Part shown: one piece after another, positions 17,646-49,617 of the stretch
Position numbering within the stretch: position 1 is the first letter of the stretch
Layout: every line of letters starts with the position of its first letter
Assembly: GCA_964525815.1 (NCBI GenBank)
Contig: CAZGJQ010000002.1
Span: forward strand, 1-50,278
Direction of reading: 5' to 3'
Length of the DNA stretch: 50,278 nt
Source of the DNA: an uncultured Oscillospiraceae bacterium
Lineage (GTDB): Bacteria; Bacillota; Clostridia; Oscillospirales; CAG-382
Program-made: the position numbers and the translations under genes
The notes under the pieces: generated by a model
Database searches by the model: none
Told to the model about the DNA's origin: nothing
What the model saw: the letters and a program-made list of their open reading frames with translations, nothing else

Positions 17646-18161
17646 TTAATCGAGTATCGCCAAATAATTAATTCCGCTAACAATGTCCTCATCCACGATA
17701 AACTGCAGGGTGCTGTCCCCTGAGGTATAATTATAGAACCTACCCTCCGCTGTGTAGTCGTCCCCATAGGCTTCCAGCAGCTCCGAAAGGGAGCATCCGA
17801 TATAAACACCATTTTCGGCGGAAACGGTGTCGTCCAGCAGTACAACCGTAAAAATATAATCGGTATCGTTAAGCTCGTAGGTGCTTATCTCAAAGCTGCC
17901 ATAATTATAGTGCTTATCCATTCCCTGAAAAGCACAGCTCGGGGCTTCAAAATAATCCATGGGCTCTCCCAAGGCGGTAATAACGGATTCCGCTCTTGCG
18001 TTCATGCGAACCGTAATATTGTTGTATTTAAATGAGAACCCCTTGTCATTTTCGGCTTGTGATTCAATAGAATCCGTACCGGATAAGTCGGTGTCTGTTT
18101 TCTCACCGCAGCCCGACAACAGCAGCAGTACAATAAGAATTATAGCAATGATTCTCATCAT
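17646..18161 (-). CDS. Lipoprotein of unknown function (last gene of the Dlt-like operon)
   Basis: 171 aa with signal peptide and lipobox (LLLLSGC). Its start overlaps the upstream stop by 4 nt (ATGA), suggesting translational coupling. Confidence 0.75.
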   Translation of the reverse strand: MMRIIAIILIVLLLLSGCGEKTDTDLSGTDSIESQAENDKGFSFKYNNITVRMNARAESVITALGEPMDYFEAPSCAFQGMDKHYNYGSFEISTYELNDTDYIFTVVLLDDTVSAENGVYIGCSLSELLEAYGDDYTAEGRFYNYTSGDSTLQFIVDEDIVSGINYLAILD

Positions 18162-19249: not shown

Positions 19250-19265
19250 CTCGGTATCCTCATTG

Positions 19266-20858: not shown

Positions 20859-20876
20859 AAGGCTAACCCTTGTTCT

Positions 20877-21104
20877 TTATTTTTCCTGCAATCGCTCAAT
20901 CAGAGCATACATCGCCTTTGCGGAGTTAAAGTTCTCCGGTACTATTTCCTCAACCGGTATCATAACATCAAACTCGTCGTTTATCTCGGCGATAATGGTT
21001 ACTATATCAAAGGAATCAATGATGCTGTCGTCAATCAGCCTCTCACTGCTCCCGAAATCAACCTCGGGGTTCTGCTCGTTTAAAATCCTAATCAGTCTGT
21101 CCAT
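20877..21104 (-). CDS. DltC-like acyl/aminoacyl carrier protein
   Basis: About 75 aa. LIDDSIIDSFDIVTIIAEINDEFDVMIPVEE parallels DltC LLDSFGTVELLLAIENRFDI (Ser for phosphopantetheine). Start taken at MDRLIRIL (21104), overlapping the upstream stop by 17 nt. Confidence 0.85.
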   Translation of the reverse strand: MDRLIRILNEQNPEVDFGSSERLIDDSIIDSFDIVTIIAEINDEFDVMIPVEEIVPENFNSAKAMYALIERLQEK

Positions 21105-22623: not shown

Positions 22624-22659
22624 GGCTTCTGCCGATACCTTTCAAAGCGTTAATACTTA

Positions 22660-24273: not shown

Positions 24274-24300
24274 ATACTAACTTCTCCAATGATAAAAATG

Positions 24301-25398
24301 TCATATCCAGCACTGATCGTCCTTGATGTCCAAAACAAAGACCTTCTCCTGATCCTCCTTATACTTTGCCTGATGATACCTAAATATCATTTTATCATCT
24401 TCCAGCTTTCCGACTATTTCGATCTTACCCCGCTCGTTTGAAAGTACATAACGGAAGCATTTTTCCTGTCCGTTAAGCAGCTTTCTCGCGTCCGAAACAA
24501 TTTTGTATCCTTTTTTAAGGGGTATTTGAAATTGATTTTTTACAGCAGTAACCGGTCTGCATTGGAACACATAGTACGGTACAACTCCGGAGGCAGTCAG
24601 CTTGCTTATAAGCTTTGCCATTACAGACGGGCTGTCATTTACGCCCTTGAGCAGAACCGCCTGATTCTTTACAATTATACCGATGTTCTTCAAGGCGCTT
24701 ATTGCTTTTTTTGCTTCTTTGGTTATTTCTCTCGGATGATTGAACTGTGTTACAACATAGATGGTCTTTTTCTTTGAGTATTCCTGTAATATAGAGAGCA
24801 GCTCGCTGTCCTTATAGATTCTGGAAGGGAGTACGACCGGAGTCCTTGTACCAAACCTAATGAGATTAATATGGTCTATTTCCACAAGCTCCTTGAGGTA
24901 AGACTCGATTTTTTTATTACTGTTCAAAAAGGAATCTCCGCCGCTGATTAGAACATTATTTATCTCCTTGTGCTCCCTTATATAAGCGATAATGTCGTCG
25001 AAGTTCTTGTTAACCTCATCATCGCTTATACCGACCAATCTTTTTCTGAAGCAATGCCTGCAATAAACAGCGCATTTGTTTGTGGACAGAATAAGTGCTG
25101 TTTGCTTGTATTTATGCTGCAACCCCACCGTAACGGTGTTCGACAGCTCACCGCTCGTGTCCATGCTTCCGCTCAAATCGGTTTCCGCAATGCTGGGAAT
25201 GCACATTTTTTTTATTGAATCGTCCTCACTTTCATCGTCAATGAGGGACAGATAATACTTTGAGACAGACATCGGGTACAGCTCGATTATACGATTCAAC
25301 TTTTTTGCCTGCTCATTGGTTAAATCCCAATCAAAGAAATCCTTCAGCTCGTTTCCCGTGGTTACGTTTTCTTCTAATTCCTTCTTCCAATTTATCAC
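24301..25398 (-). CDS. KamA-family radical SAM 2,3-aminomutase (substrate unknown)
   Basis: 365 aa, GTG start after AGAGGTG. Radical SAM cluster CAVYCRHCFRKR, SAM region ISGGDS, YYVFQC block and a PLP-Lys candidate in NERGK. Confidence 0.9.
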   Translation of the reverse strand: MINWKKELEENVTTGNELKDFFDWDLTNEQAKKLNRIIELYPMSVSKYYLSLIDDESEDDSIKKMCIPSIAETDLSGSMDTSGELSNTVTVGLQHKYKQTALILSTNKCAVYCRHCFRKRLVGISDDEVNKNFDDIIAYIREHKEINNVLISGGDSFLNSNKKIESYLKELVEIDHINLIRFGTRTPVVLPSRIYKDSELLSILQEYSKKKTIYVVTQFNHPREITKEAKKAISALKNIGIIVKNQAVLLKGVNDSPSVMAKLISKLTASGVVPYYVFQCRPVTAVKNQFQIPLKKGYKIVSDARKLLNGQEKCFRYVLSNERGKIEIVGKLEDDKMIFRYHQAKYKEDQEKVFVLDIKDDQCWI

Positions 25399-25495: not shown

Positions 25496-25524
25496 ATTAT
25501 AAACAAATAGTATTATGTTGTCAA
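25496..25524 (-). promoter_or_regulatory. Consensus sigma-A promoter TTGACA-17-TATAAT for the KamA/Dlt-like operon
   Basis: On the minus strand: TTGACA (25524-25519), exactly 17 nt, TATAAT (25501-25496). About 90 nt upstream of the KamA GTG. Confidence 0.65.
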
Positions 25525-25560
25525 GTTCAATATACACTGTATGGTCCGGGATATGCTATA

Positions 25561-25587
25561 AGTCCGAAGCGTATGCCGCTCCGGACT
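25561..25587 (-). terminator. Stem-loop after the ABC operon (possible terminator)
   Basis: 11-bp stem with one G-U pair: AGTCCGAAGCG (25561-25571) with CGCTCCGGACT (25577-25587), 5-nt loop. Lies 33 nt after the permease stop and has only a weak U-rich tail. Confidence 0.4.
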
Positions 25588-25619
25588 CTGCGTATTATAT
25601 AGCTGTAAAAAAGCTGAGC

Positions 25620-26693
25620 TTAACCCGTGATACCGCTGCGTTCCACACCCTCTATAAGGGTTCTCTGCGCAAACAGATAGATTATTACCAAAGGTGCAAG
25701 TATCATAAGTCCGCAGGTGTTCCTGATAGCCGCTTCGTAAGTAACCTGAGCGGAATACTGCGTATCCAGTGACGAAGGAATAGAGACAATGTTTGGCAGC
25801 ATCAGATAATTGGTCTTATCTGTAAAGAACAGTCCGGTATAGAAGGTATCAGACCATTGCCATGCAAAGGAAAACATGAATATGGTAACCAGCATGGGTA
25901 AAGACATCGGTATAATTATTCTTATAAATGTCTTGATGATACCAGCTCCGTCAACATATGCCGCCTCCTCAAGCTCATCCGGCACGCCGTTGAAGTATTG
26001 CTTCATTATGTATATAAACAATCCGTTCTTAAATGCAAGACCGGTAAGCGACAATATACCAAGCGGCCAGTATGAGTTGAGCAGGTTCCCAATCGCGGGT
26101 GTTGCCTCGGTTGAGCCGAACAGTGTTTTAATACCTCCGACAATACCCGAGATATCAAAATACCTGAACTTCATAAACATGGAGAGCTGTAATGTATCAT
26201 GCGGGATAATCATTGTAAGAATGACAAACACAAACAGAATGCCCTTAAACCTGAACTTAAACTTTGAAAAACCGTATCCGACTATCGCACAGGTCAGCAT
26301 CTGACATACGCCCGCCATAACAGATAATGTTGTTGAATTAAACAACGCCTGAAAATATCTGTTGTCGTTAATAATCGCCTTGTAGGTATCCAATGTAGGA
26401 TACTTTGGAATCAGCTTAACCGTCTGATCGACAAAGTCCTCCCTGGCCATAAATGAACCCGCTATTTTAGAAATATAGGGAAACAGAATTACATAGGAAA
26501 TACCGATAAGCAATACCAGCCTGAAAATAATCCACACAAGCTTTTTTGCGAAATAAGGGGTCAGATACTTATATCTCAGACGCATTCCGAACGATGTCTT
26601 TTCCTGCGCTTTTATGCGTCTTAACGCTTCTTCTTTTCGCTGGAGCCTTTTCAGCTCCTTTTCCGCTCTTTTGTTAGAAAAAGTTGAATCCAT
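25620..26693 (-). CDS. Carbohydrate-type ABC transporter permease (MalG-like), pair 1
   Basis: 357 aa, EAA loop EEAAYVDGAGIIKTFIRIIIPMSLP, 6 predicted TM segments. Has an unusual ~45-aa charged N-terminal tail. Confidence 0.9.
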   Translation of the reverse strand: MDSTFSNKRAEKELKRLQRKEEALRRIKAQEKTSFGMRLRYKYLTPYFAKKLVWIIFRLVLLIGISYVILFPYISKIAGSFMAREDFVDQTVKLIPKYPTLDTYKAIINDNRYFQALFNSTTLSVMAGVCQMLTCAIVGYGFSKFKFRFKGILFVFVILTMIIPHDTLQLSMFMKFRYFDISGIVGGIKTLFGSTEATPAIGNLLNSYWPLGILSLTGLAFKNGLFIYIMKQYFNGVPDELEEAAYVDGAGIIKTFIRIIIPMSLPMLVTIFMFSFAWQWSDTFYTGLFFTDKTNYLMLPNIVSIPSSLDTQYSAQVTYEAAIRNTCGLMILAPLVIIYLFAQRTLIEGVERSGITG

Positions 26694-26708
26694 AATCCGC
26701 CCCCCCTT

Positions 26709-27719
26709 TTATGTTTCTCGTCTCTGGTAGAACACATAGGCCGACATTATTCCGCCTACAATTAATAGGATTAGTATTACTACCAGGAAGTACATCCATG
26801 ACATTGCAGTGGCTCGAACATTACCTTCCGCAGAACCGCTGTAAATATTCTTGATATAGGTCATAACCGTGTTTGATTTGGATGTAAAGGAGTCGATAAC
26901 GGTATAAATTGAGTTAACCAATATCATCGGGCTGATCATCGGGAAGGTTATCTTCCAGAAGGTCTCCCATGCGGAAGCTCCGTCAATATGACAGGACTCA
27001 TAGATGGCCGGAGATATAGACTGCAAGCCCGCCAGGAATATAAGCATCTGCACACCGGATTTGTTTACAATATTGTAAACGTTGTTAACCATATCCGTTG
27101 CATATGTTACCAGCCCTTCTCCCACCTTCATGCCACCCAGCAGTCTCGCAACATCCATCTGCGTTATTATCTGTGTTCCGGCATTGGCGGCGTCCATACC
27201 GCCGTCGCTTATAGTGGTAACGCTCTCCTGAGCCTGAGCTATGATGTTCTGAAGGTCAATGGTCTCGATAATTCCCGTAGACACTATAACAGGAATGAAG
27301 AATATGGCTCGAAATACTGCTCTTCCCTTCATCTTCTGGTTAAGCATAACCGCCATGAAAAGAGAGAATATAACAATTGCAGGGATGTTAAAGAGAAGAT
27401 CCTTAATGCTTCCTATAAGAACCTGCACATACTCTACATCCTCAAAAAGGGCGTATCTGTAATTTTCCCATCCGACAAATTCAAGAATATAGCCGCCGCC
27501 GCCTTGAATTCGTATCTTATTAAAGGAGAACCAAATCGATTCCACAATCATCGGAAGGTAAACAAGCGCAAACCCTATCAGAAAGGGAGCAATAAAGAGC
27601 CAGCCCATTCTTGATTTTTGCTTTTGCAGGGATAATGATTTACGCTGTTTCCTCGGTCTTTTTGGAACGGAGGGCATATCCTTTGTTGTCACTGCTTTTT
27701 TCTTTATAACCTTACTCAA
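26709..27719 (-). CDS. Carbohydrate-type ABC transporter permease (MalF-like), pair 1
   Basis: 336 aa, EAA loop ESCHIDGASAWETFWKITFPMISP. Has a Lys/Arg-rich N-terminal tail of about 40 aa. Confidence 0.9.
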   Translation of the reverse strand: MSKVIKKKAVTTKDMPSVPKRPRKQRKSLSLQKQKSRMGWLFIAPFLIGFALVYLPMIVESIWFSFNKIRIQGGGGYILEFVGWENYRYALFEDVEYVQVLIGSIKDLLFNIPAIVIFSLFMAVMLNQKMKGRAVFRAIFFIPVIVSTGIIETIDLQNIIAQAQESVTTISDGGMDAANAGTQIITQMDVARLLGGMKVGEGLVTYATDMVNNVYNIVNKSGVQMLIFLAGLQSISPAIYESCHIDGASAWETFWKITFPMISPMILVNSIYTVIDSFTSKSNTVMTYIKNIYSGSAEGNVRATAMSWMYFLVVILILLIVGGIMSAYVFYQRRET

Positions 27720-27722
27720 CTT

Positions 27723-30632
27723 TTATCCCTCCCCCACTATGCTGTAATTAAAATCAATCTTGCTTCCGTCACCGTCAACCTTAATAAAGCCTTCGGCGGG
27801 AACTATATGTGTTTTTCCTTTATCAGTGACGGTGTAATCCTTAAGCAAATAGTTAATATAGAAGGATTTACCGTTATCATAGGTAACCTTGGCTACCTTG
27901 TTCTGCGAATCAAGGAACTCATGCGCCACGATGGTGTGGTTTCTCAAATCCTTGAGTGCTTCGTTAAGCATCAGATAGGTTGTTACCATATCCTCAACCC
28001 AGATATTATATCTTACCGAATAATACTGATCAAGGTAGGAATATGTATACTGCTTTAACTCAGCTGTGTTATCAAAGGCGACCACGAAATACGGAGATGC
28101 TCCGTTTTCGATTGTTTTAAGTAATGAATACTGATAATCGCCTGCCAAATTAATTGCAGTTCCGGCATAATCCTTATATCCGTGTAATACCATTCCCATA
28201 AACGGAACAGTACCAGCCGAATGCCTGTATCTTGAGTCATCAAGCGGAATATCCAGTATATCGGTTACATACTTAAGGGTGTAGGCATTACCGCCCGAGA
28301 CCATCACCTTACCGTTATCCTTCTTGATTTGTTCAAGCAGCCTTGTTATAAGCTTCTTAGAGTCCTCTCTGTGCAGCGTATCCTTTGTGTTAAAGTCGGA
28401 GGATAAATAATTTCCGAGTGTGGAAACCGATATGGCTCCTACGTTATAATCCTTATATTCCTTGAAGGTGTCACTATAAAGTCGCTCCATAACATTCGGA
28501 GATATAACGCCCAGACTGTCATAAATAAAGCCTTGCCAGACAGGGTCATAAATCTTCTTTCCTGCAGCGCGGTTGTCTATGGTCCGGGTTAAGTCTTTGG
28601 AGCTATTAAAACCATCAAATGCTTTGTCCTTAAAGGCAAAGGAGTAATCAAAATCGGGATAAATGGTAACATTATTCTTATTGGCATAATCAAGGAGCTC
28701 AAGGAAACCCTCATCTCCTCCCAATACATCCACAATGTCCACGCCGGTTGGAACCAAGGGAATCAACCCCTCGTTTGCCCATCCGCTAAGCTTAAGCTTA
28801 ATGTTGTTAACACCCTTATCTTTTAGGAAGCTTAGTATTTCAATCGAATCCTTGAAGCTTGTAAGGGCTACCGTGGTCTGCACCGGTATACCTAAAACAT
28901 GCTTTATAGTTTCAAGCGCTCCGAGAGTCTCAATATAGAGAGGAATGTCCTCAGTCGTCTGCTCCTGCTCGGTAAGCACTCCGTTCTTAATAAGATAATC
29001 TCTGTAAACATTCGCCATTTCGGAATAGGAAATGTCATCGGACAAAATAAAGTATCTCAGCTTGAAGTCGCCTGTGTATTTACGCCTTGATTCAACCGTC
29101 CACATTGCATCGCTGCTGGAGGTTGCACTGATTCCTCCGCTGAGTGTATAGGAATCCTTAGGTCTCGGATTGAAGGAGGTATATACCGACGAAAACATAT
29201 GTACCTGTCCGCCATTCTCTACTGTTATCCTGGCAAGCGAATCACCCTCTTCAATAACTGCAAGGTAGCCTATCTTTAGGTCATGCATTACCGTCTCTAA
29301 GGAAGTGGTCTCCTCTCCGGTCTCCTCATCGATAACCGTGATTTCCTCTACGGTCGAATACTGATCCTTTACAATCTCGACAACGCCGAATACAGGTAAA
29401 CGCATTATTTCTCTATTTGCTCCGGATATTGTATGAAACGCATAATCCTGTCCGTAGAGCTGACTTGTCGTCCTAAAAGCGGTACCCCGTATGTTTTCAA
29501 AATCAATAAGCGTTCCCGAACCGTCGGGGGTAAATATATAACCGCTGTTATTTACATTACCCGCTCCCGCAAACGGCAGCAAGGTTACGTTAGATAGCTT
29601 GTAGGTTGACGAATCAAATCTAATATTACCTGCATTGCATCTGACCGAAAGACCAAGCTCATCTATAGTGTACTCAATAGCCAGCTTAAACAACGGCGGA
29701 GTCTTATCCATCGAAACATAGTCGGTTTCAGCATGATCCGCATCCATCTGGTCGAAGGAATAATCGGTATACAGCTTAACCATCCGCTCCAGCCTCATAA
29801 GCTCCTTTGGGGTTATATGCGGTTCGCATACATAAACAGGGAACCTTTCGCTGATCGGATATGCCTTTCTCATCTCTACCCTTGTTTTTTCCGACAGGGA
29901 GGTGTCGTTGGGATCCTTTAATTGATAAAATGCATCGAACTGTCTTGCATCTCTCGAAACAGGCGAATTTGCTGCTATCTGTTCCATAAGCGCAATAAGC
30001 TTTTCTTTCTCAATAAGTCTCGGTACGAGATACTCGATTTCTTCTCTTCCCAATGTATACTCGACCCTTACTCCGCTTCTTATAGGCTTAACCGTAATCT
30101 GATTGTTCCTTGCGGCATCCACAAAGGAGTTAAAGGAAAGGTCTGTATTCTGTTCGGAATAATCAACAATAACCTGTGAATACAGCCTGCTCTTAATTGA
30201 CTCTGAGGTAGCCGTACCGGTCATGGACTGACTTGACCCAATGTTGTATGGATTGGTGGAAAAATAAGCGTCATACTTATAAATTCCGTCCTCTCCAATC
30301 TCATATTCTCCGTCCTCATCCGGCTCTGTGAGCTGAAGAAGAACCATCTCACCAGTAATTTCATCTACATAAAGGGCAAATCCGTCCTTGACAAGCATAC
30401 AGGTCATCTGTGCGATAACATCGTTTCCGTTAATCCTGTCGTTTATGGATTTAAAGCCCGTAGACATATACGCGGGATACAGAGCATCCCAGATATCCTC
30501 TTCATCATCATCCTGTGCGGAATTACCGGATTCATCGGCAAGCGCCTCAATAGCCATTACCGAAACAAGCATTATAAGGCAGAGAAGAAGCGCCGTTAGT
30601 TTTTTAAATATACCTTTTTTCATACTTGACAC
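27723..30632 (-). CDS. Large secreted protein of unknown function (possible glycoside-hydrolase-like barrel in the C-terminal half)
   Basis: 969 aa, N-terminal signal peptide (LLLCLIMLVSVMAIEALA/DE), no recognisable catalytic motif by eye. Embedded between the permease pairs. Confidence 0.8.
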   Translation of the reverse strand: MSSMKKGIFKKLTALLLCLIMLVSVMAIEALADESGNSAQDDDEEDIWDALYPAYMSTGFKSINDRINGNDVIAQMTCMLVKDGFALYVDEITGEMVLLQLTEPDEDGEYEIGEDGIYKYDAYFSTNPYNIGSSQSMTGTATSESIKSRLYSQVIVDYSEQNTDLSFNSFVDAARNNQITVKPIRSGVRVEYTLGREEIEYLVPRLIEKEKLIALMEQIAANSPVSRDARQFDAFYQLKDPNDTSLSEKTRVEMRKAYPISERFPVYVCEPHITPKELMRLERMVKLYTDYSFDQMDADHAETDYVSMDKTPPLFKLAIEYTIDELGLSVRCNAGNIRFDSSTYKLSNVTLLPFAGAGNVNNSGYIFTPDGSGTLIDFENIRGTAFRTTSQLYGQDYAFHTISGANREIMRLPVFGVVEIVKDQYSTVEEITVIDEETGEETTSLETVMHDLKIGYLAVIEEGDSLARITVENGGQVHMFSSVYTSFNPRPKDSYTLSGGISATSSSDAMWTVESRRKYTGDFKLRYFILSDDISYSEMANVYRDYLIKNGVLTEQEQTTEDIPLYIETLGALETIKHVLGIPVQTTVALTSFKDSIEILSFLKDKGVNNIKLKLSGWANEGLIPLVPTGVDIVDVLGGDEGFLELLDYANKNNVTIYPDFDYSFAFKDKAFDGFNSSKDLTRTIDNRAAGKKIYDPVWQGFIYDSLGVISPNVMERLYSDTFKEYKDYNVGAISVSTLGNYLSSDFNTKDTLHREDSKKLITRLLEQIKKDNGKVMVSGGNAYTLKYVTDILDIPLDDSRYRHSAGTVPFMGMVLHGYKDYAGTAINLAGDYQYSLLKTIENGASPYFVVAFDNTAELKQYTYSYLDQYYSVRYNIWVEDMVTTYLMLNEALKDLRNHTIVAHEFLDSQNKVAKVTYDNGKSFYINYLLKDYTVTDKGKTHIVPAEGFIKVDGDGSKIDFNYSIVGEG

Positions 30633-30638
30633 TCCTTT

Positions 30639-32855
30639 CTAAAACCAATAACGGTATTTAAGCTCGACAAATATATTATATCCGAATGTAAATACCTTCT
30701 GAAGCAGACTGAAGAACAGCGCTCCGACAAATACAATAAACACTGCACCTACGATTGTTCCTATGGTGGTTAAAATATTCTTGCCGAGTGTATAATCATG
30801 TATAACCATCATAGCAAAGAATATCAGCAGTCCGAGCCATGCAAAGGCTATGGATTCCATCATACCCAGAATGGCCATTTCCTCTGCAACAACAAAGTTT
30901 GACATAATTACCGTCGGTAAAACCAGCAGCGGAAGCGGAGCAATAGCATAACCCGAGGCGATATAAACATCCTTGTAGCTTCCCTCCCCTTCAAAAAGGG
31001 TTGTAAGACACCAGTTTGCGGTTACCCATAAGAACAGCGGCATTACCACCGAAATCGTCTGCCAGATAAATGAGCCTCCATAGTTGGACTGATTATATAG
31101 ATACCCCTGTCCCACAGACTGATAAATATATACGGCGACGGTAAATCCGAGCCAGAAGGTTGCACCCCTTACGGAGCCTCTCTTCTCATGCTTTATGTCC
31201 CAGAAGCCGTCAAACGGATGGAATATAACATGGAAGGCATACATTACTTCCGAGAAGAAGCTGCGTCTCTCTGCGGAATTCTGTCCCTTCTTATTGTACT
31301 TTTTAGCAAACTTTAACAGCTTGCTAACCCCGATTAAAAACAACACCACAACCAACGGAATAACCCAGACATTATTCTCTATCCATTGCTTACGGTACAT
31401 TCCGTATGCAACCGAATAATTTGCTGTGTCATAGGCGTTTTTGAAGTACTGCATTGCGTCAAGATAATAGCCGTCTCTATAAAGACTCTGACCTATTCCT
31501 ACATAAGCACTGTCATAGTTGTTGTTATACTGAAGTATTTTTATATAATAATCAACAGCAGCCTCGTAGTTCTTATCCTCTGTGTTTTGAATAGCGGAGG
31601 CTATCAAATCTCCGTAGCCTGTTCTTTTATAAACTGTTATGGAGCTTGAATTCCTGTCAAGGAGCAGAATGTTTGAGCCCTGATATTCAATCGCAATAAG
31701 AGATTGAATGTTACCTACCTGATCTCCCGTATCTCCGAATGCAAAAAGCAGGTTGCCGTTACTATCATATGTAAAAACCCTGCTGCGCTTAGAGTCAATT
31801 ATACTCCAGGTATTGCTCGGTCCGAGAGCTACATCAACCACGGTAGACGGTCCGGAAACAGGAAACTCTGTTCTCGACATGGTCAAAAAATCTATTTCGC
31901 CCGAGGGAGGATGGAACCCGTTTCGGTTCATAACATCGCTTCCGTTGGGATTTAGCTTCTTAACCGGTGCATAATCACCCGACTTTGATTTGCCGCGTAT
32001 TGCACTGATTACATCAGCTTCATCTATCGAAGAAGTAGTTACATAAAGGAAGCCGTCGTTATCGATATTTACATTGTTATACTCGGTGGGAACCCACTGA
32101 ATGCTTCTACTTATCTGATCCTGCGTCTGAAACATACGCCAGAAGAGCTGAAAGGCATTATATGTAACCTTCTGCGGCCCGATAAATCCGTTGAAGGAGC
32201 CGTCTCTGTTCAGTGAGATAACGCCATAGTTTGTTGTGGAGGAAACCACATAAACACGACCGGCTCTGTCCACTGCAACCGCAATAGGCTTATAAACGCT
32301 GTTGTCAGGCAGAACATCGCTTGCGGGCTCGGGAACTATATCAAGGAAGTTTCCGATCTTGTCGAATATAACAACCCTTGACTTCTCGGTATCCGCAACA
32401 TAAATCTCGCTGTCGGTAACAAAAACACCTCTCGGCTGATTAAGTGCATCCGGAATGCCCTGATCGTTTATAAACGTGTTGATAATAAGCCTGATGTTGT
32501 ATTCCTCATCCAACCCTACTATTCTGCTGTTGTCAGTATCCGCAATATATACATGGTTTAAATCGTCAACGCATATATCCCTCGGAGAATTCAAGTCCAG
32601 CATATCATCAAGACTATACTTCTGCCTTGTAATCTCACTTGCGCCGTTCTCATATGATTCTCTGATTGTTTTGGAATTAATAATGGTTAACGGCACATAT
32701 GCGTGCGGACTCCGTTGCATCCATCCGTATACATCGTATGTATAGGTTGCATACGGGACAACTGCGCTTGCACTGAAAACAGTGCCCGAAAGGAGAATAA
32801 GACATATTGCAAGAAGAAAAACTCTTATAATTTTTGTTTTGTTTTTCATTAGCAT
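30639..32855 (-). CDS. NHL-repeat beta-propeller / TPR / Yip1-domain membrane protein
   Basis: 738 aa with a signal peptide and about six NHL-like blades (VYIADTDNSRIVGLD, IYVADTEKSRVVIFD, VYVVSSTTNYGVISLNRDG...). Then a TPR-like segment (NYEAAVDYYIKILQYNNNYDSAYVGIGQSLY) and a polytopic C-terminus resembling the Yip1 family. Confidence 0.82.
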   Translation of the reverse strand: MLMKNKTKIIRVFLLAICLILLSGTVFSASAVVPYATYTYDVYGWMQRSPHAYVPLTIINSKTIRESYENGASEITRQKYSLDDMLDLNSPRDICVDDLNHVYIADTDNSRIVGLDEEYNIRLIINTFINDQGIPDALNQPRGVFVTDSEIYVADTEKSRVVIFDKIGNFLDIVPEPASDVLPDNSVYKPIAVAVDRAGRVYVVSSTTNYGVISLNRDGSFNGFIGPQKVTYNAFQLFWRMFQTQDQISRSIQWVPTEYNNVNIDNDGFLYVTTSSIDEADVISAIRGKSKSGDYAPVKKLNPNGSDVMNRNGFHPPSGEIDFLTMSRTEFPVSGPSTVVDVALGPSNTWSIIDSKRSRVFTYDSNGNLLFAFGDTGDQVGNIQSLIAIEYQGSNILLLDRNSSSITVYKRTGYGDLIASAIQNTEDKNYEAAVDYYIKILQYNNNYDSAYVGIGQSLYRDGYYLDAMQYFKNAYDTANYSVAYGMYRKQWIENNVWVIPLVVVLFLIGVSKLLKFAKKYNKKGQNSAERRSFFSEVMYAFHVIFHPFDGFWDIKHEKRGSVRGATFWLGFTVAVYIYQSVGQGYLYNQSNYGGSFIWQTISVVMPLFLWVTANWCLTTLFEGEGSYKDVYIASGYAIAPLPLLVLPTVIMSNFVVAEEMAILGMMESIAFAWLGLLIFFAMMVIHDYTLGKNILTTIGTIVGAVFIVFVGALFFSLLQKVFTFGYNIFVELKYRYWF

Positions 32856-32864
32856 GCTCCTTTC

Positions 32865-33785
32865 CTAATCCTTCATGCCGGAGGTTGACATGGTTTGAAT
32901 TACATTACTCTGTGCTATAACAAACACGGTAACCGGAACCACCATCATAACAACGGTTGCTGCGGCACCCACACCCGAACGGGCGATACCGGAGGTAACC
33001 AGCTGACCTATCGCATAGTTGAAGGTCTTGAGCTGCTCACTGTATATGAACAGGTTTCCACCCATGTTCCACAGGTCTCTGAATGAGAATATAACCAGAG
33101 TTACCCATGCAGGCTTTACCATAGGCATCGCTATCTTCCAAAAAATCTTGTTTTCGTTTGCACCCTCAATCCTCGCGCTCTCCAGCACCGCATCCGTAAC
33201 ATTAGTCTCCATAAACTGCTTCATCAGGTACAGACCGAAGGTGGTACAGAAGGCGGGAACAATTACCGCAAGATATGTATCAACCCAACCCAGCAGCGCC
33301 ATTGTTATGAAATTGGTTATGCCGGTTACGGTTGCGTTAAACATCAACGAGTAAATAACAATACTGAAGAGAAACTTTCTTCCCGGGAATGCAATCTTTG
33401 CGATTGCATATGCAGCATAGGAGGCAAACAGAACGTGTCCCGTAGTACCCACGGTGGAAATGAACACTGTGTTAAAAATGTATCTCGAAAAGGGTACCCA
33501 GGAGTCTCCCATCAGCCGGAATAAATCCTTGAAGTTCTTCATTGTGGGATTAACCACATAAAAGCGAGGCGGGAAAAACCAGAACTCGTCAAGCGGCTTA
33601 AGGGACTGTATAATGGCAAAGTACAAAGGAGCAGCCATTATTACACCGACTATTCCCAGTAAAACATATATACCGATGTCTCCGCCGGTGGAACGGTTAA
33701 TGGAGCGTCTGAAGGTATTGTGTGATTTGTTTCTCTGCCGTTTTTCTATGTAATTCTTGAATCTTTCTTTTATATTTACTGTCAT
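32865..33785 (-). CDS. Carbohydrate-type ABC transporter permease (MalG-like), pair 2
   Basis: 306 aa, EAA loop ESARIEGANENKIFWKIAMPMVKP. Confidence 0.92.
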   Translation of the reverse strand: MTVNIKERFKNYIEKRQRNKSHNTFRRSINRSTGGDIGIYVLLGIVGVIMAAPLYFAIIQSLKPLDEFWFFPPRFYVVNPTMKNFKDLFRLMGDSWVPFSRYIFNTVFISTVGTTGHVLFASYAAYAIAKIAFPGRKFLFSIVIYSLMFNATVTGITNFITMALLGWVDTYLAVIVPAFCTTFGLYLMKQFMETNVTDAVLESARIEGANENKIFWKIAMPMVKPAWVTLVIFSFRDLWNMGGNLFIYSEQLKTFNYAIGQLVTSGIARSGVGAAATVVMMVVPVTVFVIAQSNVIQTMSTSGMKD

Positions 33786-33788
33786 ATG

Positions 33789-34724
33789 CTACGAACCTAC
33801 CTTTCTGAGAACTCTCGTTACGATAAGGTTTGCACCTATCATCATGAAAAACAGAATAGTAGCTATAGCCGAAGCATATCCCATTTCAAATCGCATTCCG
33901 CCATAATCATCCAAATGATGCATTATGGTATGAGCTACATAGTTAGGGCTGGGGAATCCGACAAGCGCCGTTATATGAGCTCCGAAACCGAAGGAGCCGG
34001 TTATCGCCAATATTGCACCAAGCATCATCTGAGGACGCATGGTGGGAAGGGTAATAAACCACAGCTCCTGCCAGCGGTTCTTTACTCCGTCCATTGCTCC
34101 CGCCTCATACAGCTCCTGATTAACGACCTGAAAACCTGCGATAAAGGTCAGGAAGGAAGCTCCGAGCGAGGTCCAAAGAGCAACAACAACAATTAATGTA
34201 AATATGTACTTCTCATCCTGAAACCATAGGATGGGCTTGGAAATAATATTTAGCTTTATCAGCCATGCATTTACAAAGCCGTACTGATCGGAATGAAAGA
34301 ATATTGTCCATATCAAATAAACCATTCCGGAAATAGAGGGCGCATAAAACAAAACTGTTACAAATGCACGAATCTTAGGTCTCAGCTCATTGATAAACCA
34401 TGCGAAGAACAGACACAAAAGGTACGAGCCCGGTCCGGTAATTGCTGCGAACACCAATGTGTTCTTAATGGCTATCAGGAATATATCGTCATCTAAAAGA
34501 AGCCGGATATAGTTATCCATGAATATAAAGTTCGGCCATTCAAGCAGATTGAAGGTGGTAAAGCTGAGTACCACCGACATAAGCACGGGTACTACCGTAA
34601 AAATGAAGAACAGAAGGAAGAAGGGAAAAATCATCGCATACCCAGCCCAATTTTTCTTCATTTGTATTAGAGTCCACTTGGATTTTGATATATCCGTTCT
34701 GATTATCGCTTTTTCTTTTGCCAT
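33789..34724 (-). CDS. Carbohydrate-type ABC transporter permease (MalF-like), pair 2
   Basis: 311 aa, EAA loop EAGAMDGVKNRWQELWFITLPTMRP. Confidence 0.92.
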   Translation of the reverse strand: MAKEKAIIRTDISKSKWTLIQMKKNWAGYAMIFPFFLLFFIFTVVPVLMSVVLSFTTFNLLEWPNFIFMDNYIRLLLDDDIFLIAIKNTLVFAAITGPGSYLLCLFFAWFINELRPKIRAFVTVLFYAPSISGMVYLIWTIFFHSDQYGFVNAWLIKLNIISKPILWFQDEKYIFTLIVVVALWTSLGASFLTFIAGFQVVNQELYEAGAMDGVKNRWQELWFITLPTMRPQMMLGAILAITGSFGFGAHITALVGFPSPNYVAHTIMHHLDDYGGMRFEMGYASAIATILFFMMIGANLIVTRVLRKVGS

Positions 34725-34743
34725 TAACTATCTCCCCCTCCCC

Positions 34744-37700
34744 TTATTCCTTGCCTAAAAGATTGTGCTCAAGCTCCGCAATGTCCTCTGCCGTTGGCAG
34801 TCCGAACTCCTTGCGCTTTCGAGTCAACTCACTGTTTATATCAATAATATAGGAAAGCATTTTCTCAACCGGTTCGTCGCCGTTATTATACACACCTAAG
34901 AAAGCAAAGTTTGTGTATCTCGGAATAATATAGTTTCCTGGGAACTCCGGTACGCACTGTACCGCATTAAACTGCGCTCTCAAATTGTCATATTCATCTC
35001 TGGACCATGCCATATTTTCCAGAGCCTCAAGGTTTGCGGTATTCTGCTTCGCAGAGGGACCGAGCAGGGCAACCATTTCGTTGCCGTATGCGCTCTGTAC
35101 CCTTGCGCTGGTCCACCACTGCATATATGTCCAAGCTGAGAAAGCGTTTTCGTCGTTAACCGTTCTCATCATAACCATAGCGGTAATTGTTCCAACTGTG
35201 GTGTTGTCTATGGAGCCGTCGGGATTAAGGGTTCCGGGCAATGGTGTAAACTCCCAAAGTCCTTTAATCTCCGGCGCAAATACAATAAGGTGATTATATG
35301 TTATATATTCCATTACTGCCAGCGGCATCGTTCCCTGACGGAAGCGATTCGGGAAGCTGAACACAACGGGGAAATCATACATTGTATATAGCTGACAAAC
35401 CTCCTTAAACGATGCAAGAGCAATATCCGAATCAAGATTTATTGTCATTCCGTCCGTTTTGGGTAATACATTTCCCTCCTGATCCGTATAGGTATAGCCT
35501 AATTCGTCAAGATCCTCGTCTGTATATCCGTTTTCATGGAACAAATCCATATAATAATCGTAATTACCCATATCATAAAGGGTTGCACCCCGCTGATACA
35601 TCATAAACATAGCACCGCCCGTTCCTGCAGCCGCTGTCGCATCTCCGGCAACACCGGCAGGGAACCCTACCTCAAGCATGCTTGACTGTAATGTATAAAT
35701 AATATCGTAAAAATCGTCCCATGTGTTCGGAACATCAATACCAAGCTCCACAAAAATGTCCTTGCGATAAAACATCATCGGGAAGCCCATATTCTCGGGT
35801 ACCGCATATGTCTCGCCGTATAGGGTTACGGGAATCATAGCTGCGGGAGCGAAACGCTCCTTAACCTGGTCAAAGGTATCTACCCTGTCTAATATCGAGC
35901 CGTAAACAGGATGATTCTCCCACTGTGAGAAATCATTGAAGTTATATCCTATCTTTGTATCGCCTGTTTGTGTATTAAGGGACTTAACCGCTGATCTTAT
36001 TGCATAGTTTACCGGGTCTCCCTGTGCGTTACCCATAGAAACATCGGGTCCCGTTCCCGCAAGAGTTGCGGGGAGCAGGGTGCCGGGAATAACCAGCTTC
36101 ACGGTTACCGGTATATTGTAGTTGGCAGAAAAATCATCGTCAACAAGCCCCCTTATAATCTGAGCCTGTTCTCTTGAGGTGGCGGTCCAAACCTCAATTG
36201 CTACTCTATCTATATCATCGCTTGTAATTCCCTCCGATAAAGAACCTATAGAGTTATAATCGGCAAAGAAGGAAGCAATAAACTTTTGAATCTCTCCCCA
36301 CATTGATTTAAAGAACCCGGGCTCCGCCTCAGGAGGCTCTGCATCAACCGCTTGTATGCATAAATAATCTATATACAGCGGTTGGTTCTGGGTTGTGGTC
36401 AGCCAGGTACCTAATGCACCGAGATGATCCTTTAATATTGTCATACTTGAAGCTATGGTTGTGGGATATGTTCCCATTCGCTCAAGATAAATCGCAATCT
36501 TATCGAGGGTTGCGGCATGCTCTCCCTTTTCTCCGGTTATCTGGCTTAATCTCTCGGTTACATTATTAATTATAGCCGCTTGCTCCTTAAGACCCTTGAT
36601 AACATCGGGAATAAGTCTCTCAAACCTGTAATCTCGATATTCATCCGGCTTAGGACCGGTAATCATAAGTATTTTACGGTAATAACCGTTAATAACCGTA
36701 AGACTGTTCTCTACGACGCTTAAAATCTCGGACATATCTCCGAGAACAACCTCGAGACGAATTTTGTTTTCTCCCTCTTCGAGATAGAACTTGAAGTTGC
36801 GGCTTCCGTCACCGAGCGGCTCGGTAAGCCAGCTATCCGAGTAATTAAAACGCAGATAAGAGGCCTCCTCAAAAGGCACCTCATCATTTATATATATCCT
36901 TCTGGATACATACATTCCCGAATAAATATCCTGCTTAGAACGGGGAATTATGTTGTAAAATCCGTCCTCTGGTACATTTACCGTCCACTCAATCCACTGA
37001 CCCACATACTGCCATTTGTCGCCGCCTATCATATTTAATCTCATAAGTGCGGGATCCTGCGGGATTGTTATGATGGAGCTTCTGTCATTCAGCTGATAGA
37101 TTGTTCTCTCAGAAACAACGGTGGGATATTCCGCCTGTATCATAACAACCTCGTCGCCTGTATAATCGGGCTTATCCGAATACTGCTCGATATACTCATC
37201 ATATGTAGGAACCGAAGGCGCTCTCATCAGCTTAATGCTCTTAATTGCCATCGGCTCTTTAATTGTCTGAAGGGTTATCTTATGAGTGCCCTCATCCAAA
37301 TAGAATCTGAGCGGATTGTTATAATAACCCGTGGAGTCAAACAAAAAGCAATCCTCCCAGGCGTTCAACAGTACCTTATCGGGTTTTGCTTCGTTTCCGA
37401 TAAGATCCTTGAGGAAAAGACGTTGACTGTCCTTGATGTTATTCTCGTAATCAAGAATAAAATCCTCAAACTCCTTAGAGTCCGACAAATAGGTTACTCT
37501 TTTTCCGTTCTCGTCAAGCACGGGTCTGCCGTTCTCGTCAACGACGATATATTCATCGGCCCATCTTCTCTGCAAAACAATAGAACGAGCTTCTTTAAAG
37601 GGAACCCTGTCATTTATAAGAAGCATTCGCTCAAAGGAGGTGGACTTACCCACGCTTATCTCATTGCCTTCATCGTCCTCCACCTGAATATTACCTGTAT

Positions 37701-38115
37701 AATACTCGATGTATATGCTGTACATTGCTTCGTCCGAAATGTCAACATTCCAGCTAACCTTTCCGTCGTCACCCATAAACAGTACGGGCTCCTCAACGCC
37801 CGCAAAGCCGTCCTTAACATTAACGGTTGCGGTGGTACTCTCCTCATCATCTATGTAGTCGGCAATCGATAATTCAATCTCGGCTTCTGCATCCTTGACA
37901 TCGGAATGAAGATTCAAATATTCGCTGTACATGACTGATGTAAGAATATTTCTAATCTCGGTCAAGGAGGTACGCACCAAAGAATCGGAGCCGCCCACGC
38001 TTTCTACGAGAGCAGATGCGGGTATGCCGATTTCAAACATTGCTCCTGTCGCAAGTATTGCAAACGCAAGCACACCAACCAACAATCTTTTTGATGTTTT
38101 TCTGATTCTGGTCAT
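34744..38115 (-). CDS. Giant extracellular solute-binding protein with two N-terminal CBM-like modules
   Basis: Start taken at MTRIRKTSKRLL (ATG 38115, GGGAGGA 7 nt upstream). N-terminal anchor, two related beta-sandwich-like modules and a helical linker. The C-terminal ~480 aa resemble a family-1 sugar-binding protein (VAIEVWTATSREQAQIIRGLVDDDF..., MFYRKDIFVELGIDVPNTWDDF). Confidence 0.88.
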   Translation of the reverse strand: MTRIRKTSKRLLVGVLAFAILATGAMFEIGIPASALVESVGGSDSLVRTSLTEIRNILTSVMYSEYLNLHSDVKDAEAEIELSIADYIDDEESTTATVNVKDGFAGVEEPVLFMGDDGKVSWNVDISDEAMYSIYIEYYTGNIQVEDDEGNEISVGKSTSFERMLLINDRVPFKEARSIVLQRRWADEYIVVDENGRPVLDENGKRVTYLSDSKEFEDFILDYENNIKDSQRLFLKDLIGNEAKPDKVLLNAWEDCFLFDSTGYYNNPLRFYLDEGTHKITLQTIKEPMAIKSIKLMRAPSVPTYDEYIEQYSDKPDYTGDEVVMIQAEYPTVVSERTIYQLNDRSSIITIPQDPALMRLNMIGGDKWQYVGQWIEWTVNVPEDGFYNIIPRSKQDIYSGMYVSRRIYINDEVPFEEASYLRFNYSDSWLTEPLGDGSRNFKFYLEEGENKIRLEVVLGDMSEILSVVENSLTVINGYYRKILMITGPKPDEYRDYRFERLIPDVIKGLKEQAAIINNVTERLSQITGEKGEHAATLDKIAIYLERMGTYPTTIASSMTILKDHLGALGTWLTTTQNQPLYIDYLCIQAVDAEPPEAEPGFFKSMWGEIQKFIASFFADYNSIGSLSEGITSDDIDRVAIEVWTATSREQAQIIRGLVDDDFSANYNIPVTVKLVIPGTLLPATLAGTGPDVSMGNAQGDPVNYAIRSAVKSLNTQTGDTKIGYNFNDFSQWENHPVYGSILDRVDTFDQVKERFAPAAMIPVTLYGETYAVPENMGFPMMFYRKDIFVELGIDVPNTWDDFYDIIYTLQSSMLEVGFPAGVAGDATAAAGTGGAMFMMYQRGATLYDMGNYDYYMDLFHENGYTDEDLDELGYTYTDQEGNVLPKTDGMTINLDSDIALASFKEVCQLYTMYDFPVVFSFPNRFRQGTMPLAVMEYITYNHLIVFAPEIKGLWEFTPLPGTLNPDGSIDNTTVGTITAMVMMRTVNDENAFSAWTYMQWWTSARVQSAYGNEMVALLGPSAKQNTANLEALENMAWSRDEYDNLRAQFNAVQCVPEFPGNYIIPRYTNFAFLGVYNNGDEPVEKMLSYIIDINSELTRKRKEFGLPTAEDIAELEHNLLGKE

Positions 38116-38216
38116 TCGTTTTTCCTCCCACGAAAAATATGCGAAAACATACACAAGTGCATCTGCAATGCGGAATGCAAACCGCAGACGAGATTGTGCA
38201 TTTATTTATGTGATTT

Positions 38217-38245
38217 ATACTAACATGATAGCTCAAATTTGTCAA
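38217..38245 (-). promoter_or_regulatory. Candidate promoter of the ABC operon (TTGACA-17-TAGTAT, TG-extended)
   Basis: On the minus strand: TTGACA (38245-38240), a 17-nt spacer ending TGT, TAGTAT (38222-38217). Leader of about 95 nt to the binding-protein ATG. Confidence 0.4.
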
Positions 38246-38762
38246 GAGTGCATATAAAAGCTTGTACTTTTTTAGTGATTTTTCACCTAAAAAGCGGCAA
38301 AACCGCACTGCTTAACGAATTATTAATAATAAACCGATTCGGTTTATATGTTATATTTGCTAAATTGGTTTTTTTAAGAAAACTTTAAGCTGATTATAAT
38401 TTTGTGTTTTCTCCTTTTTATAAAATGCGTGAAAACGCCTTGCATAGCACTATTATTAGTAATTTGCTGCATTTTTTTAAGACATAATAGTGATACTTTT
38501 AAAACACGTTTTCTTTTAACGATAATTTATTCCATTTTCCAGCTTTAGCATTTATGCTGTATTTTTCGAACGTTTTATTAATATAAATGCAGGTTATTTG
38601 TGCATGTTGCACATTAAAAGGAGAATGTTTTTTACGTGATGTATTATGCTACAAAACATACGTTCCCTACGTGCTTCTCTATTATTTTCCGAAAAAAAAT
38701 ACTAATCCACATAAAAGAACATACGGAATTGCATGGGATTAAAACTTTGTCTGATAAAAAAT

Positions 38763-39764
38763 TTACTGCTGTTCGCCGACCGAAACGGTTATTATAAACC
38801 CGTCTGTATTATTCCCCGAAAATGTATACTCAAGCTCACTCGGAACTTTTATGTTGGTTGACGTACCGGTACCGGCTTGCTGATAATATATATAATATGT
38901 ATCCTTACTGTCCGCATCAGTATAGACAAGCGGATCTGTGTAATCCCGGCTCTTTATTTCCTCCAAATATTCCTCTAAGGTTATGCTGTTCTCGGTCATA
39001 TATTTGGAATGCGGCACTCCGACATATCTGTAAACGGACACTGAGGAAGCAGCACCGGTCTGCTCTGTTTTATCAGAAGGATACCGTAATATGTAGCCGT
39101 ATTTACTGCAATGGTCTTCGAGCCAGAGATAAACCCCCTCCCCCATTTTACCCTTATCGGACGGAAAAACGGTAAGCCGTACGGTTCTTCCCGAAGCAAG
39201 GTCGGCATAATCATAGAAGATATCCCGGTTCTTTAGGTCTTTAATTGCTACAAACGCATCGTTTATCATAATATCTGATACCTGAGTTGCCGTTAAAAAA
39301 GCTTCAGTCATTTCGTTAAACGCTTCAAACGCTTCCTTTTCGAGCACCAAGCCCGAACCGCTCAGCTTATACAGCCCCTTCGGTCTGTTATTATATATGT
39401 TTACAAGCTCAAGTGCTTCTTTCTCCGGAGCGGTTGCATCCGTTGTATTTTTCACCAGAATCAAGCTGCCCTCGCTCATCGCATCGTTTTGAAAGGCGAT
39501 TTCCCTATATACAAAAAGCTCCTCGGGCTCATCCGCGCTCTCGGCAATGCTCTCTACCGAATTTTGGTCAACAGGCTCAGAAAAAGGCATGCTGCTCTCC
39601 GAAACCACAATTCCGCTCTCTTCCTCGGAAAACAGATTCCCGGTCAATAAAATCGCCGCAATAACGGCAACTATAAGTATGCATATAAGCGCAGTTGTCA
39701 GATAAAGATACAGATACCTGTCCTTTTCCATACTTTTTTTGGCCAAAAAACTCTCTCCCTTCAA
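38763..39764 (-). CDS. LdcB/VanY-like (M15B) membrane-anchored protein, apparently lacking the zinc/catalytic residues
   Basis: N-terminal TM. The C-terminal KYGYILRYPSDKTEQTG...YRYVGVPHSKYMTENSITLEEY matches the LdcB/VanY hallmark block. Start uncertain: TTG 39764, TTG 39746 or ATG 39731. Confidence 0.75.
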   Translation of the reverse strand: MKGESFLAKKSMEKDRYLYLYLTTALICILIVAVIAAILLTGNLFSEEESGIVVSESSMPFSEPVDQNSVESIAESADEPEELFVYREIAFQNDAMSEGSLILVKNTTDATAPEKEALELVNIYNNRPKGLYKLSGSGLVLEKEAFEAFNEMTEAFLTATQVSDIMINDAFVAIKDLKNRDIFYDYADLASGRTVRLTVFPSDKGKMGEGVYLWLEDHCSKYGYILRYPSDKTEQTGAASSVSVYRYVGVPHSKYMTENSITLEEYLEEIKSRDYTDPLVYTDADSKDTYYIYYQQAGTGTSTNIKVPSELEYTFSGNNTDGFIITVSVGEQQ

Positions 39765-49605: not shown

Positions 49606-49617
49606 TAATTTATTCTT

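Follow-up and report, generated by a model that had tools for sequence, protein, structure and literature searches.

A conserved seven-gene cassette of Clostridia that probably encodes the surface and membrane parts of a CUT1-type glycan importer

A seven-gene cassette in an uncultured Oscillospiraceae bacterium

Seven minus-strand genes, termed g1 to g7, on a contig of an uncultured Oscillospiraceae bacterium (GenBank assembly GCA_964525815.1, contig CAZGJQ010000002.1) are best explained as one operon for the extracellular and membrane parts of a CUT1-type (type I) ATP-binding cassette (ABC) importer with its own glycan capture and cleavage, a reading to which a probability of roughly 0.6 is assigned. 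The window, that is, the whole stretch of DNA analysed, is 50,278 nucleotides (nt) long. An original prediction made from the DNA letters had proposed a machine for glycan capture, processing and import or, alternatively, for export or assembly. The first proposal agrees with the conserved gene unit, the ABC-importer type, the similarity of g1 to carbohydrate-binding module (CBM) families 6 and 35 and the fold of g5, which resembles glycoside hydrolase (GH) families 129 and 101; the alternative is not supported, as discussed below. The layout of open reading frames (ORFs) also agrees with the predicted gene order and spacing of 3-19 nt, the successive intergenic gaps being 19, 3, 9, 6, 3 and 15 nt:

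34744-38115, minus strand: g1, extracellular binding protein of 1123 amino acids (aa)
33789-34724, minus strand: g2, MalF/UgpA-like permease of 311 aa, first pair (BPD_transp_1, 40.6 bits; NCBIfam UgpA/PotB/GlcT)
32865-33785, minus strand: g3, MalG/UgpE-like permease of 306 aa, first pair (NCBIfam UgpE/GlcU/MalG)
30639-32855, minus strand: g4, NHL-TPR-Yip1 membrane protein of 738 aa (Pfam NHL and Yip1)
27723-30632, minus strand: g5, secreted DUF5696 protein of 969 aa (PF18952)
26709-27719, minus strand: g6, MalF/UgpA-like permease of 336 aa, second pair (Pfam, NCBIfam, EAA loop)
25620-26693, minus strand: g7, MalG/UgpE-like permease of 357 aa, second pair (BPD_transp_1, 50.9 bits; NCBIfam MalG/UgpE)

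All parts of the cassette are of known kinds. No description of the fixed layout of seven or eight genes, the unanchored binding protein bearing CBMs, the Yip1-propeller partner or the enzyme-like DUF5696 protein was found in the literature searched, in keeping with the prediction that the layout was an undescribed one.

Conservation in Clostridia and Bacilli

Two scans of species-representative genomes yielded 101 loci, all of them in metagenome-assembled genomes (MAGs) of Clostridia (Oscillospiraceae, 'Ruminococcus sp. CAG:382' and similar) from sources that include gut, rumen, digesters and groundwater. The seven genes were found in the same order and orientation in all 82 complete clostridial loci, the other 19 being cut by a contig end on the side where genes are missing. 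At least 238 species-level genomes were matched in the second scan, from two peptide patterns alone.

A tblastn search of plasmids with g5 recovered two cultured, annotated and very distant members (25-27% identity). The same gene order was found on plasmid pNP243 of Butyrivibrio fibrisolvens D1, where a divergent histidine kinase and response regulator and a GH43 gene are followed by genes for a 977-aa binding protein, two permeases, NHL, YIP1 and DUF5696 proteins, two further permeases and two lipoprotein binding proteins; the GH43 protein has no signal peptide (cytoplasmic). The locus of Paenibacillus cellulosilyticus consists of ugpC and genes for a 986-aa binding protein, two permeases, a 719-aa YIP1 protein, a DUF5696 protein and two permeases. 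This eight-gene version, with ugpC first, was recovered from all 14 Paenibacillaceae, Cohnella included, in a scan with a single-protein query. According to BLASTP, the window, Butyrivibrio and Paenibacillus genes are orthologous position by position, including the long N-terminal extension of g1. Conservation of the block as a unit in related genomes, which had been named as a check of the original prediction, is thus borne out in both classes. Each pair of permeases is far closer to the pair in the same position at the distant loci than to the other pair, which places the duplication that gave rise to two pairs before Clostridia and Bacilli diverged.

A cassette contig labelled 'Candidatus Margulisbacteria' (MFRH01000057.1) was also observed. 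Its 64% identity, query span and length are the same as those of a Clostridiales MAG contig, so that the label is probably a binning error and not an occurrence outside the Firmicutes.

Permeases and ATPase supply

The permeases g2, g3, g6 and g7 were recognized by Pfam and NCBIfam as BPD_transp_1 proteins of the UgpA/MalF and UgpE/MalG types; g3 scores 23 bits in Pfam, under the 26.4-bit cut-off, and its NCBIfam UgpE/MalG matches are clear. The EAA loops that had been foreseen in all four were located by a regular-expression search at residue 207 of g2, 202 of g3, 241 of g6 and 242 of g7, and six hydrophobic segments were counted in g2 from hydropathy. The MalF-like and MalG-like heterodimer with EAA loops that is expected of a CUT1 importer is therefore encoded twice over. 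Identity between the g2/g3 and g6/g7 pairs is just ~20-25% (~24% for g6 against g2); with the third permease of the cassettes in Butyrivibrio and Paenibacillus, g6 shares 33-44% identity, and g7 is orthologous to the fourth (BLASTP). The extracellular binding protein of MalE/family-1 fold that such an importer also requires is supplied by residues 640-1123 of g1. Together with the membrane domains and this fold, the ATPase encoded within the operon in Bacilli indicates a CUT1-type importer.

No ORF carrying both a Walker A motif and LSGGQ was found across the 50-kb window, and hence no ABC ATPase; the MalK/MsmX-type nucleotide-binding subunit of a CUT1 importer is likewise absent from it. An MsmX-type gene occurs in the flanks of three of the 101 clostridial loci and never inside the cassette. 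A motif scan of these flanks also returned four odd ABC-like ORFs, and the ten ATPase loci obtained by clustering were rejected as a single-linkage artefact, the real count being three. In all 14 Paenibacillaceae a UgpC/MsmX/MalK-type ATPase gene is the first gene of the operon (NF008653, 464 bits). The sharing of MsmX-type ATPases among importers is established in Firmicutes (PMC7658222, PMC5730181), and for that reason a missing ATPase in the clostridial lineage is ordinary; in the source organism we infer that the ATPase for both pairs is supplied in trans. The window ORFs of >=150 aa were also scanned for a regulator, a kinase or a cytoplasmic glycosidase, and none was found. The earlier statement that the block has no ATPase and no regulator thus describes this clostridial lineage but not the system, given ugpC in 14 of 14 Paenibacillaceae and the histidine kinase and response regulator at the Butyrivibrio locus.

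The BPD_transp_1-type membrane-domain family is known only from importers, which makes export very unlikely. The export or surface-assembly machine for glycan or protein that was originally offered as an alternative to import is indeed scarcely credible, all four membrane proteins being type I importer domains with EAA loops, accompanied by a binding-protein fold, and the cassette holding no glycosyltransferase, flippase or component of the MacB/membrane-fusion protein (MFP) type. What may be said for it is that two large secreted or anchored proteins are encoded and that the sole bacterial Yip1 protein studied works with an exporter (PMC4887032).

The DUF5696 protein g5

The protein g5 matches DUF5696 (PF18952) with 517 bits (E = 7e-155; cut-off 25.6 bits) and so belongs to this family. 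It had been guessed to be a member of a DUF family co-occurring with Yip1 proteins, and wherever a locus had enough flank, a DUF5696 gene was in fact found to adjoin an NHL/Yip1 gene. No paper mentioning DUF5696 or PF18952 was found in the literature searched. At 50% identity the family has 5237 cluster representatives (E <= 1e-3). The protein g5 carries a signal peptide but no further anchor, and is 969 aa long if started at GTG and 966 aa if started at the ATG at 30623.

In the AlphaFold2 (AF2) model (pLDDT 84, pTM 0.80), g5 consists of a beta-sandwich, a (beta/alpha)8 barrel and a C-terminal beta-sandwich, with an extra, lineage-specific ~300 aa at the N-terminus. This corresponds to the architecture of GH129 enzymes, namely a beta-sandwich, a TIM barrel and an Ig-like domain, in which only the Asp nucleophile is common to NagBb and DagB (PMC5698469). 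The top Foldseek matches are 5opq (DagB, whole chain, E 5e-26), 8rzk and 5wzn (NagBb, E 2e-20), with a TM-score to target of ~0.7; weaker matches were obtained to GH101, a GH36-like galactosaminidase, GH31 and GH36. Identity to any characterised glycosidase among the structural matches is 10-12%. A direct sequence search of g5 against the PDB gave no match, the link to GH129 having come via profile and predicted fold only. Searched against PDB sequences, the g5 family profile matched GH129 enzymes alone and weakly (E 0.19-0.76), and hhalign aligned g5 to a profile of 76 GH129 homologues over 558 columns with a probability of 98.2% (E 2.9e-13).

Conservation of residues Asp367, Asp393, Asp670, Asp743, Arg752, Asn779, His814 and Glu839 extends as far as Butyrivibrio and Paenibacillus, a pattern that one would expect of an active site. 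The invariant Asp743 stands two residues from the column aligned to the nucleophile on strand beta4 (NagBb Asp435, DagB Asp486), in a stretch where the alignment is of low confidence. Conserved Asp residues in the beta-sandwich ahead of the barrel parallel Asp202 of DagB (PMC5698469). Fold, profile and conserved residues together therefore make g5 a remote GH129/GH101 relative and not a GH129 member; as judged from the profile comparison, the relation to GH129 is remote homology and not family-level similarity. The protein is probably catalytic.

Many DUF5696 proteins are 1200-2500 aa long and contain long insertions. One of them, P0265, has a ~850-aa Ala/Thr-rich, low-complexity helical insertion between barrel and C-terminal beta-sandwich that matches no Pfam domain and may be a stalk projecting the domain off the cell.

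The binding protein g1 and the membrane protein g4

The AF2 model of g1 (pLDDT 82, pTM 0.77) begins with a hydrophobic signal or anchor helix, followed by beta-sandwiches at ~38-300 and ~320-457, a four-helix bundle at 461-576 and a complete MalE-type fold at 640-1123. Some 600 residues thus precede the sugar-binding fold, whose top Foldseek matches are oligosaccharide binding proteins (TM-score to target 0.72-0.79). Both beta-sandwiches are CBM6/35-like: the N-terminal profile matched nothing but CBM6/35 modules in the PDB, weakly (E 0.006-0.56), and the N-terminal part contains the CBM6/35-type motif GQWIEWxVxVPExGxY. Although g1 itself has no Pfam match, its relatives carry SBP_bac_8 or SBP_bac_1 (SBP_bac_8 in 29 of 40, with weak CBM_35 in 11 of 40), and residues ~745-840 weakly match sugar binding proteins in the PDB by direct sequence search. 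A lipobox is lacking in g1 and in 55 of its 56 relatives, while the ordinary binding proteins beside the Butyrivibrio cassette have one.

The protein g4 comprises a signal peptide, an extracellular NHL beta-propeller (52.6 bits), TPR at 428-477, a transmembrane helix at 496-514 and a C-terminal multi-pass Yip1 domain at 541-710 (PF04893, 43.2 bits against a cut-off of 28.6), with four to five hydrophobic segments between 603 and 718, as expected of the Yip1 family. Its PDB matches are NHL propellers of the PknD type and consensus TPRs. Separate NHL and YIP1 genes take its place in Butyrivibrio, and the two are fused in Paenibacillus (the 719-aa YIP1 protein). Since g1 and g5 both lack a lipid or wall anchor, g4 is the obvious candidate for holding them at the membrane or organising the complex. 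The sole precedent is the Yip1 protein YknW, which is reported to modulate how the YknXYZ ABC transporter is assembled (PMC4887032).

Proposed mechanism

The folds, conserved residues and gene arrangement described above suggest a mechanism of five steps, in which ligand, activity, delivery and scaffolding are put conditionally. Polymeric glycan would first be bound by g1 through its two CBM6/35-like modules. The secreted g5, with its glycosidase-like fold and conserved Asp, would then cleave the polymer or trim oligosaccharides at the cell surface, and the MalE-like domain of g1 would pass the products to a MalF/MalG-like channel, so that they would enter via one or both channel pairs. Transport through g2/g3 and g6/g7 would be driven by an MsmX/UgpC-type ATPase encoded elsewhere here, a single ATPase presumably serving both pairs. 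In the last and most speculative step, g4 might keep g1 and g5 beside the channels or modulate assembly of the complex, as YknW does for YknXYZ.

A bolder form of this proposal, which is possible but put forward only tentatively, holds that the seven proteins and an MsmX-type ATPase are one physical, Firmicutes-specific surface machine. It would combine a Yip1-anchored propeller scaffold, a CBM-bearing binding protein without lipid anchor, the founding member of a new GH family (DUF5696, related to GH129 and GH101 with other catalytic residues) and two distinct ABC channels.

Transcription and translation signals

The following signals were found around the cassette:

38294-38306, minus strand: terminator-like hairpin closing the VanY-like gene upstream of the promoter (terminator scan)
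38217-38245, minus strand: sigma-70-type promoter (TTGACA, 17 nt, TG-extended TAGTAT), ~100 nt 5' of g1 (promoter scan)
25561-25587, minus strand: stable hairpin, 33-60 nt past the g7 stop (RNA fold of 25545-25622, -25.7 kcal/mol, z = -3.85)
25496-25524, minus strand: next promoter, a perfect TTGACA/17/TATAAT that serves a radical-SAM gene

The simplest reading of the sequence is that g1 to g7 lie on one transcript. Eight related loci, whose proteins are 59-76% identical, can be aligned at the -35 box TTGACAA, the TG-extended -10 box and the GGAGG ribosome-binding site. The hairpin past g7 is probably the 3' end of the transcript; having no T-run after it, it is absent from the terminator-scan list. 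Promoter-like matches within the block all fall inside coding sequence, at a frequency that does not exceed that of shuffled sequence. Terminator-like matches number 23 against 12.8 expected (~2x background), and all are weak and inside coding sequence, none of them at a gene boundary. Internal promoters and terminators were accordingly rejected. Signs of translational coupling are seen in the 3-19 nt gaps and in g6, which starts at TTG and has its GGGGGAGGG ribosome-binding site within the 3' end of g5. The start codon of g1 is an ATG downstream of a GGGAGG ribosome-binding site; an alternative in-frame GTG upstream would give 1136 aa.

It was also observed that TATATGCAC(T/A)C abuts the -35 TTGACAA at 38246-38270 (minus strand) and is kept in the five relatives that stand closest; it may represent an UP element or a site for an activator. 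An Rfam search 5' of g1 found no riboswitch or leader. A catabolite-repression (cre)-like site inside g1 (38058-38072) was treated as chance, the window holding two matches against 1.0 expected.

Genomic neighbourhood

The surroundings of the cassette in the window are core chromosome, with ribosomal-protein operons, SecY, Adk, RpoA, phosphoglucomutase and PFOR. Two neighbours recur in related loci:

38763-39764, minus strand: VanY-like D,D-carboxypeptidase, membrane-anchored, preceding the cassette in ~45 of 101 related loci
39819-43376, minus strand: PFOR, preceding the cassette in ~40 of 101 related loci

This recurrence indicates a stable chromosomal position and not a mobile island. From lineage to lineage the conserved neighbours change, which makes them look like a case of vertical synteny.

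On the 3' side of the cassette, a minus-strand gene run at 18158-25398 encodes a radical-SAM protein, a secreted protein that combines a transglutaminase core with Ig-like domains, an enzyme of the AMP-binding type, an MBOAT acyltransferase and a 386-aa product without Pfam match. It looks like a set for acylation or modification of a surface polymer, reminiscent of dlt or alginate O-acylation systems. Two RNA elements were identified elsewhere in the window, namely a c-di-GMP-I riboswitch (49523-49607, minus strand; 70 bits against a gathering score of 35) directly 5' of a 347-aa ORF without Pfam match (48427-49470), and an S10-Clostridia ribosomal-protein leader (15628-15704, minus strand; 40 bits) 5' of a ribosomal-protein operon, the latter element fitting a clostridial origin for the window.

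The flanks are also conserved in Paenibacillaceae, with an aldo/keto reductase upstream in 11 of 14 and, downstream in 13 of 14, homologues both of NtaA/DmoA-family FMN monooxygenases and of carbohydrate-type binding proteins. In the P. cellulosilyticus plasmid record (2398-3366, 15874-25097), four monooxygenases are interleaved with two binding proteins and accompanied by an NfsA-like flavin reductase. This inventory resembles the gene set of the sulfoquinovose 'sulfo-SMO' pathway, a likeness that hints at an uncommon sugar substrate in aerobes, one that may be sulfonated. Nothing comparable adjoins the clostridial cassettes.

Evidence against glycan import and alternative explanations

Several findings weigh against glycan capture, cleavage and import. 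No measured activity, ligand or transport of any member was found in the literature searched, and the scores behind the CBM assignment of the g1 modules are weak. No fused NHL, Yip1 or binding-protein domain was found in the long DUF5696 proteins (1100-2500 aa), and a physical coupling of g4 to g1 or g5 thus has no support from fusions. The core-chromosome position beside ribosomal-protein genes, PFOR and the VanY-like gene is unusual for an inducible polysaccharide locus, no regulator or cytoplasmic glycosidase lies nearby and a cre-like site near g1 was present in none of 88 related loci. Two further points, on the active site of g5 and on the number of binding proteins, bear on particular alternatives.

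The acid/base Glu of GH129 (NagBb Glu478, strand beta5) is not found in g5, where Gly-Gly-Asn 777-779 aligns to it; hydrolysis may then need another acid/base residue, or g5 may not be a hydrolase. If so, DUF5696 could be a catalytically dead, glycosidase-like binder or scaffold, and the system would only capture and import ready-made oligosaccharides. The replacement of the Glu and the mere 10-12% identity to characterised glycosidases would fit this explanation, which is nevertheless distinctly unlikely given that Asp367, Asp393, Asp670, Asp743, His814 and Glu839 around the barrel are conserved down to 25% identity. Furthermore, DagB, the closest structural match, also lacks the acid/base residue of NagBb and is nonetheless active (PMC5698469).

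In both Butyrivibrio and Paenibacillus, conventional orphan binding-protein genes lie 3' of the second permease pair, which they may serve there. The idea, present in the original prediction, that one binding protein serves two pairs is accordingly not established, although g1 is the only one available to both pairs in the source lineage. The orphan genes, like the ~20-25% identity between the pairs, could also be taken to mean that two independent sugar importers are simply neighbours, separated by unrelated envelope genes and not functionally coupled. Such an arrangement is highly improbable in view of the order and orientation, which are invariant in 82 of 82 complete loci and in 15 distant loci of Clostridia and Bacilli. 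The 3-19 nt gaps with their signs of translational coupling, the single ATPase gene for the whole block in Paenibacillaceae and the second pair of the source lineage, with g1 as its only binding protein, also argue against it.

The chromosomal setting raises the further question of whether the cassette carries out housekeeping recovery or remodelling of an envelope glycopolymer that the cell itself has made, be it secondary cell-wall polymer, capsule or exopolysaccharide, with g5 trimming it and the channels re-importing the fragments, and is not concerned with foraging. The core-genome site among ribosomal-protein operons, PFOR and a VanY-like gene, kept in ~45 of 101 loci, would suit such a role, as would the near-consensus, conserved promoter without a regulator, the downstream genes for surface-polymer acylation (AMP-binding, MBOAT and transglutaminase/Ig) and the Paenibacillaceae flanks, which also lack CAZymes and sugar regulators. 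Even so, this explanation is considered unlikely. The neighbours differ by lineage in the manner of vertical synteny, and CBM6/35-like modules typically belong to enzymes whose substrate is exogenous polysaccharide. In Butyrivibrio, moreover, the surroundings of the cassette are classically catabolic, comprising GH43, a histidine kinase and response regulator (two-component system) and extra lipoprotein binding proteins. This context fits foraging and speaks for glycan import by a CUT1-type system, the preferred reading.

Comparison with known systems

The cassette resembles CUT1 importers with a shared MsmX/MsmK, such as AraNPQ, GanSPQ and MdxEFG of B. subtilis (with MalEFGK2 of E. coli as the structural paradigm), in its MalF/MalG-like pairs with EAA loops and its family-1 binding protein of MalE fold. 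The ATPase of these importers is often encoded elsewhere (PMC7658222, PMC5730181), as in the clostridial cassettes, and the Paenibacillaceae cassette has one of UgpC/MsmX type in the operon. Unlike these importers, the cassette has two anciently diverged membrane pairs per operon, with the NHL-TPR-Yip1 and DUF5696 proteins always interleaved between them, and its binding protein is ~2.5x the normal size, with two CBM6/35-like modules, a helical bundle and no lipobox.

With the alpha-N-acetylgalactosaminidase NagBb of GH129 (5WZN), the GH129-like 3,6-anhydro-D-galactosidase DagB (5OPQ) and the GH101 endo-alpha-N-acetylgalactosaminidases, g5 shares the three-domain architecture and remote profile homology. 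Its conserved Asp aligns, in a stretch of low confidence, at or beside the beta4 nucleophile position, and a similar R-E motif opens the next helix. The protein differs from these enzymes in its 10-12% identity, the absence of the canonical acid/base Glu, its ABC-operon setting, the extra N-terminal ~300 aa and, among its relatives, helical insertions of up to ~850 aa.

As in YknWXYZ of Bacillus, a multi-pass protein of the Yip1 family is encoded with an ABC transporter. However, YknYZ is an exporter of the MacB type and has a membrane-fusion protein, and YknW has no NHL/TPR ectodomain, whereas the cassette would be an importer; no MacB, FtsX or MFP-type gene was found in it, all transport genes being BPD_transp_1.

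As in Gram-positive polysaccharide utilisation loci (PULs) and, by function, in the Sus-like systems of Bacteroidota, modules for glycan binding are encoded along with a transporter and a glycosidase-like protein of the surface. A sensor/regulator and a cytoplasmic GH43 are added in Butyrivibrio only; the recognised CAZyme and sugar-responsive regulator expected of a Gram-positive PUL are absent from the window. Unlike Sus, the cassette uses ABC channels and not a TonB-dependent transporter, and in the source lineage it has neither a regulator nor a recognised CAZy family. PULs are usually mosaic, whereas the composition of the cassette is fixed at seven genes across classes.

Biological significance

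The cassette is widespread, with matches to two peptide patterns in at least 238 species-level genomes of Clostridia from gut, rumen and the environment, in addition to Butyrivibrio and Paenibacillaceae, and DUF5696 extends over ~5200 clusters at 50% identity. DUF5696 is probably a new glycoside hydrolase family in the GH101/GH129 lineage, and bacterial Yip1 proteins emerge as possible organisers of ABC transporters. In this design one operon and, in Bacilli, one ATPase gene would feed two different ABC channels. If the proteins do form a single surface machine, depolymerisation would be coupled directly to uptake, and the machine would be a Gram-positive counterpart of the Sus 'utilisome' of Bacteroidota. 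Paenibacillus cellulosilyticus, Cohnella thermotolerans and Butyrivibrio fibrisolvens D1 offer cultured organisms for testing the cassette, which is a candidate determinant of glycan use in the abundant uncultured Oscillospiraceae of the gut.

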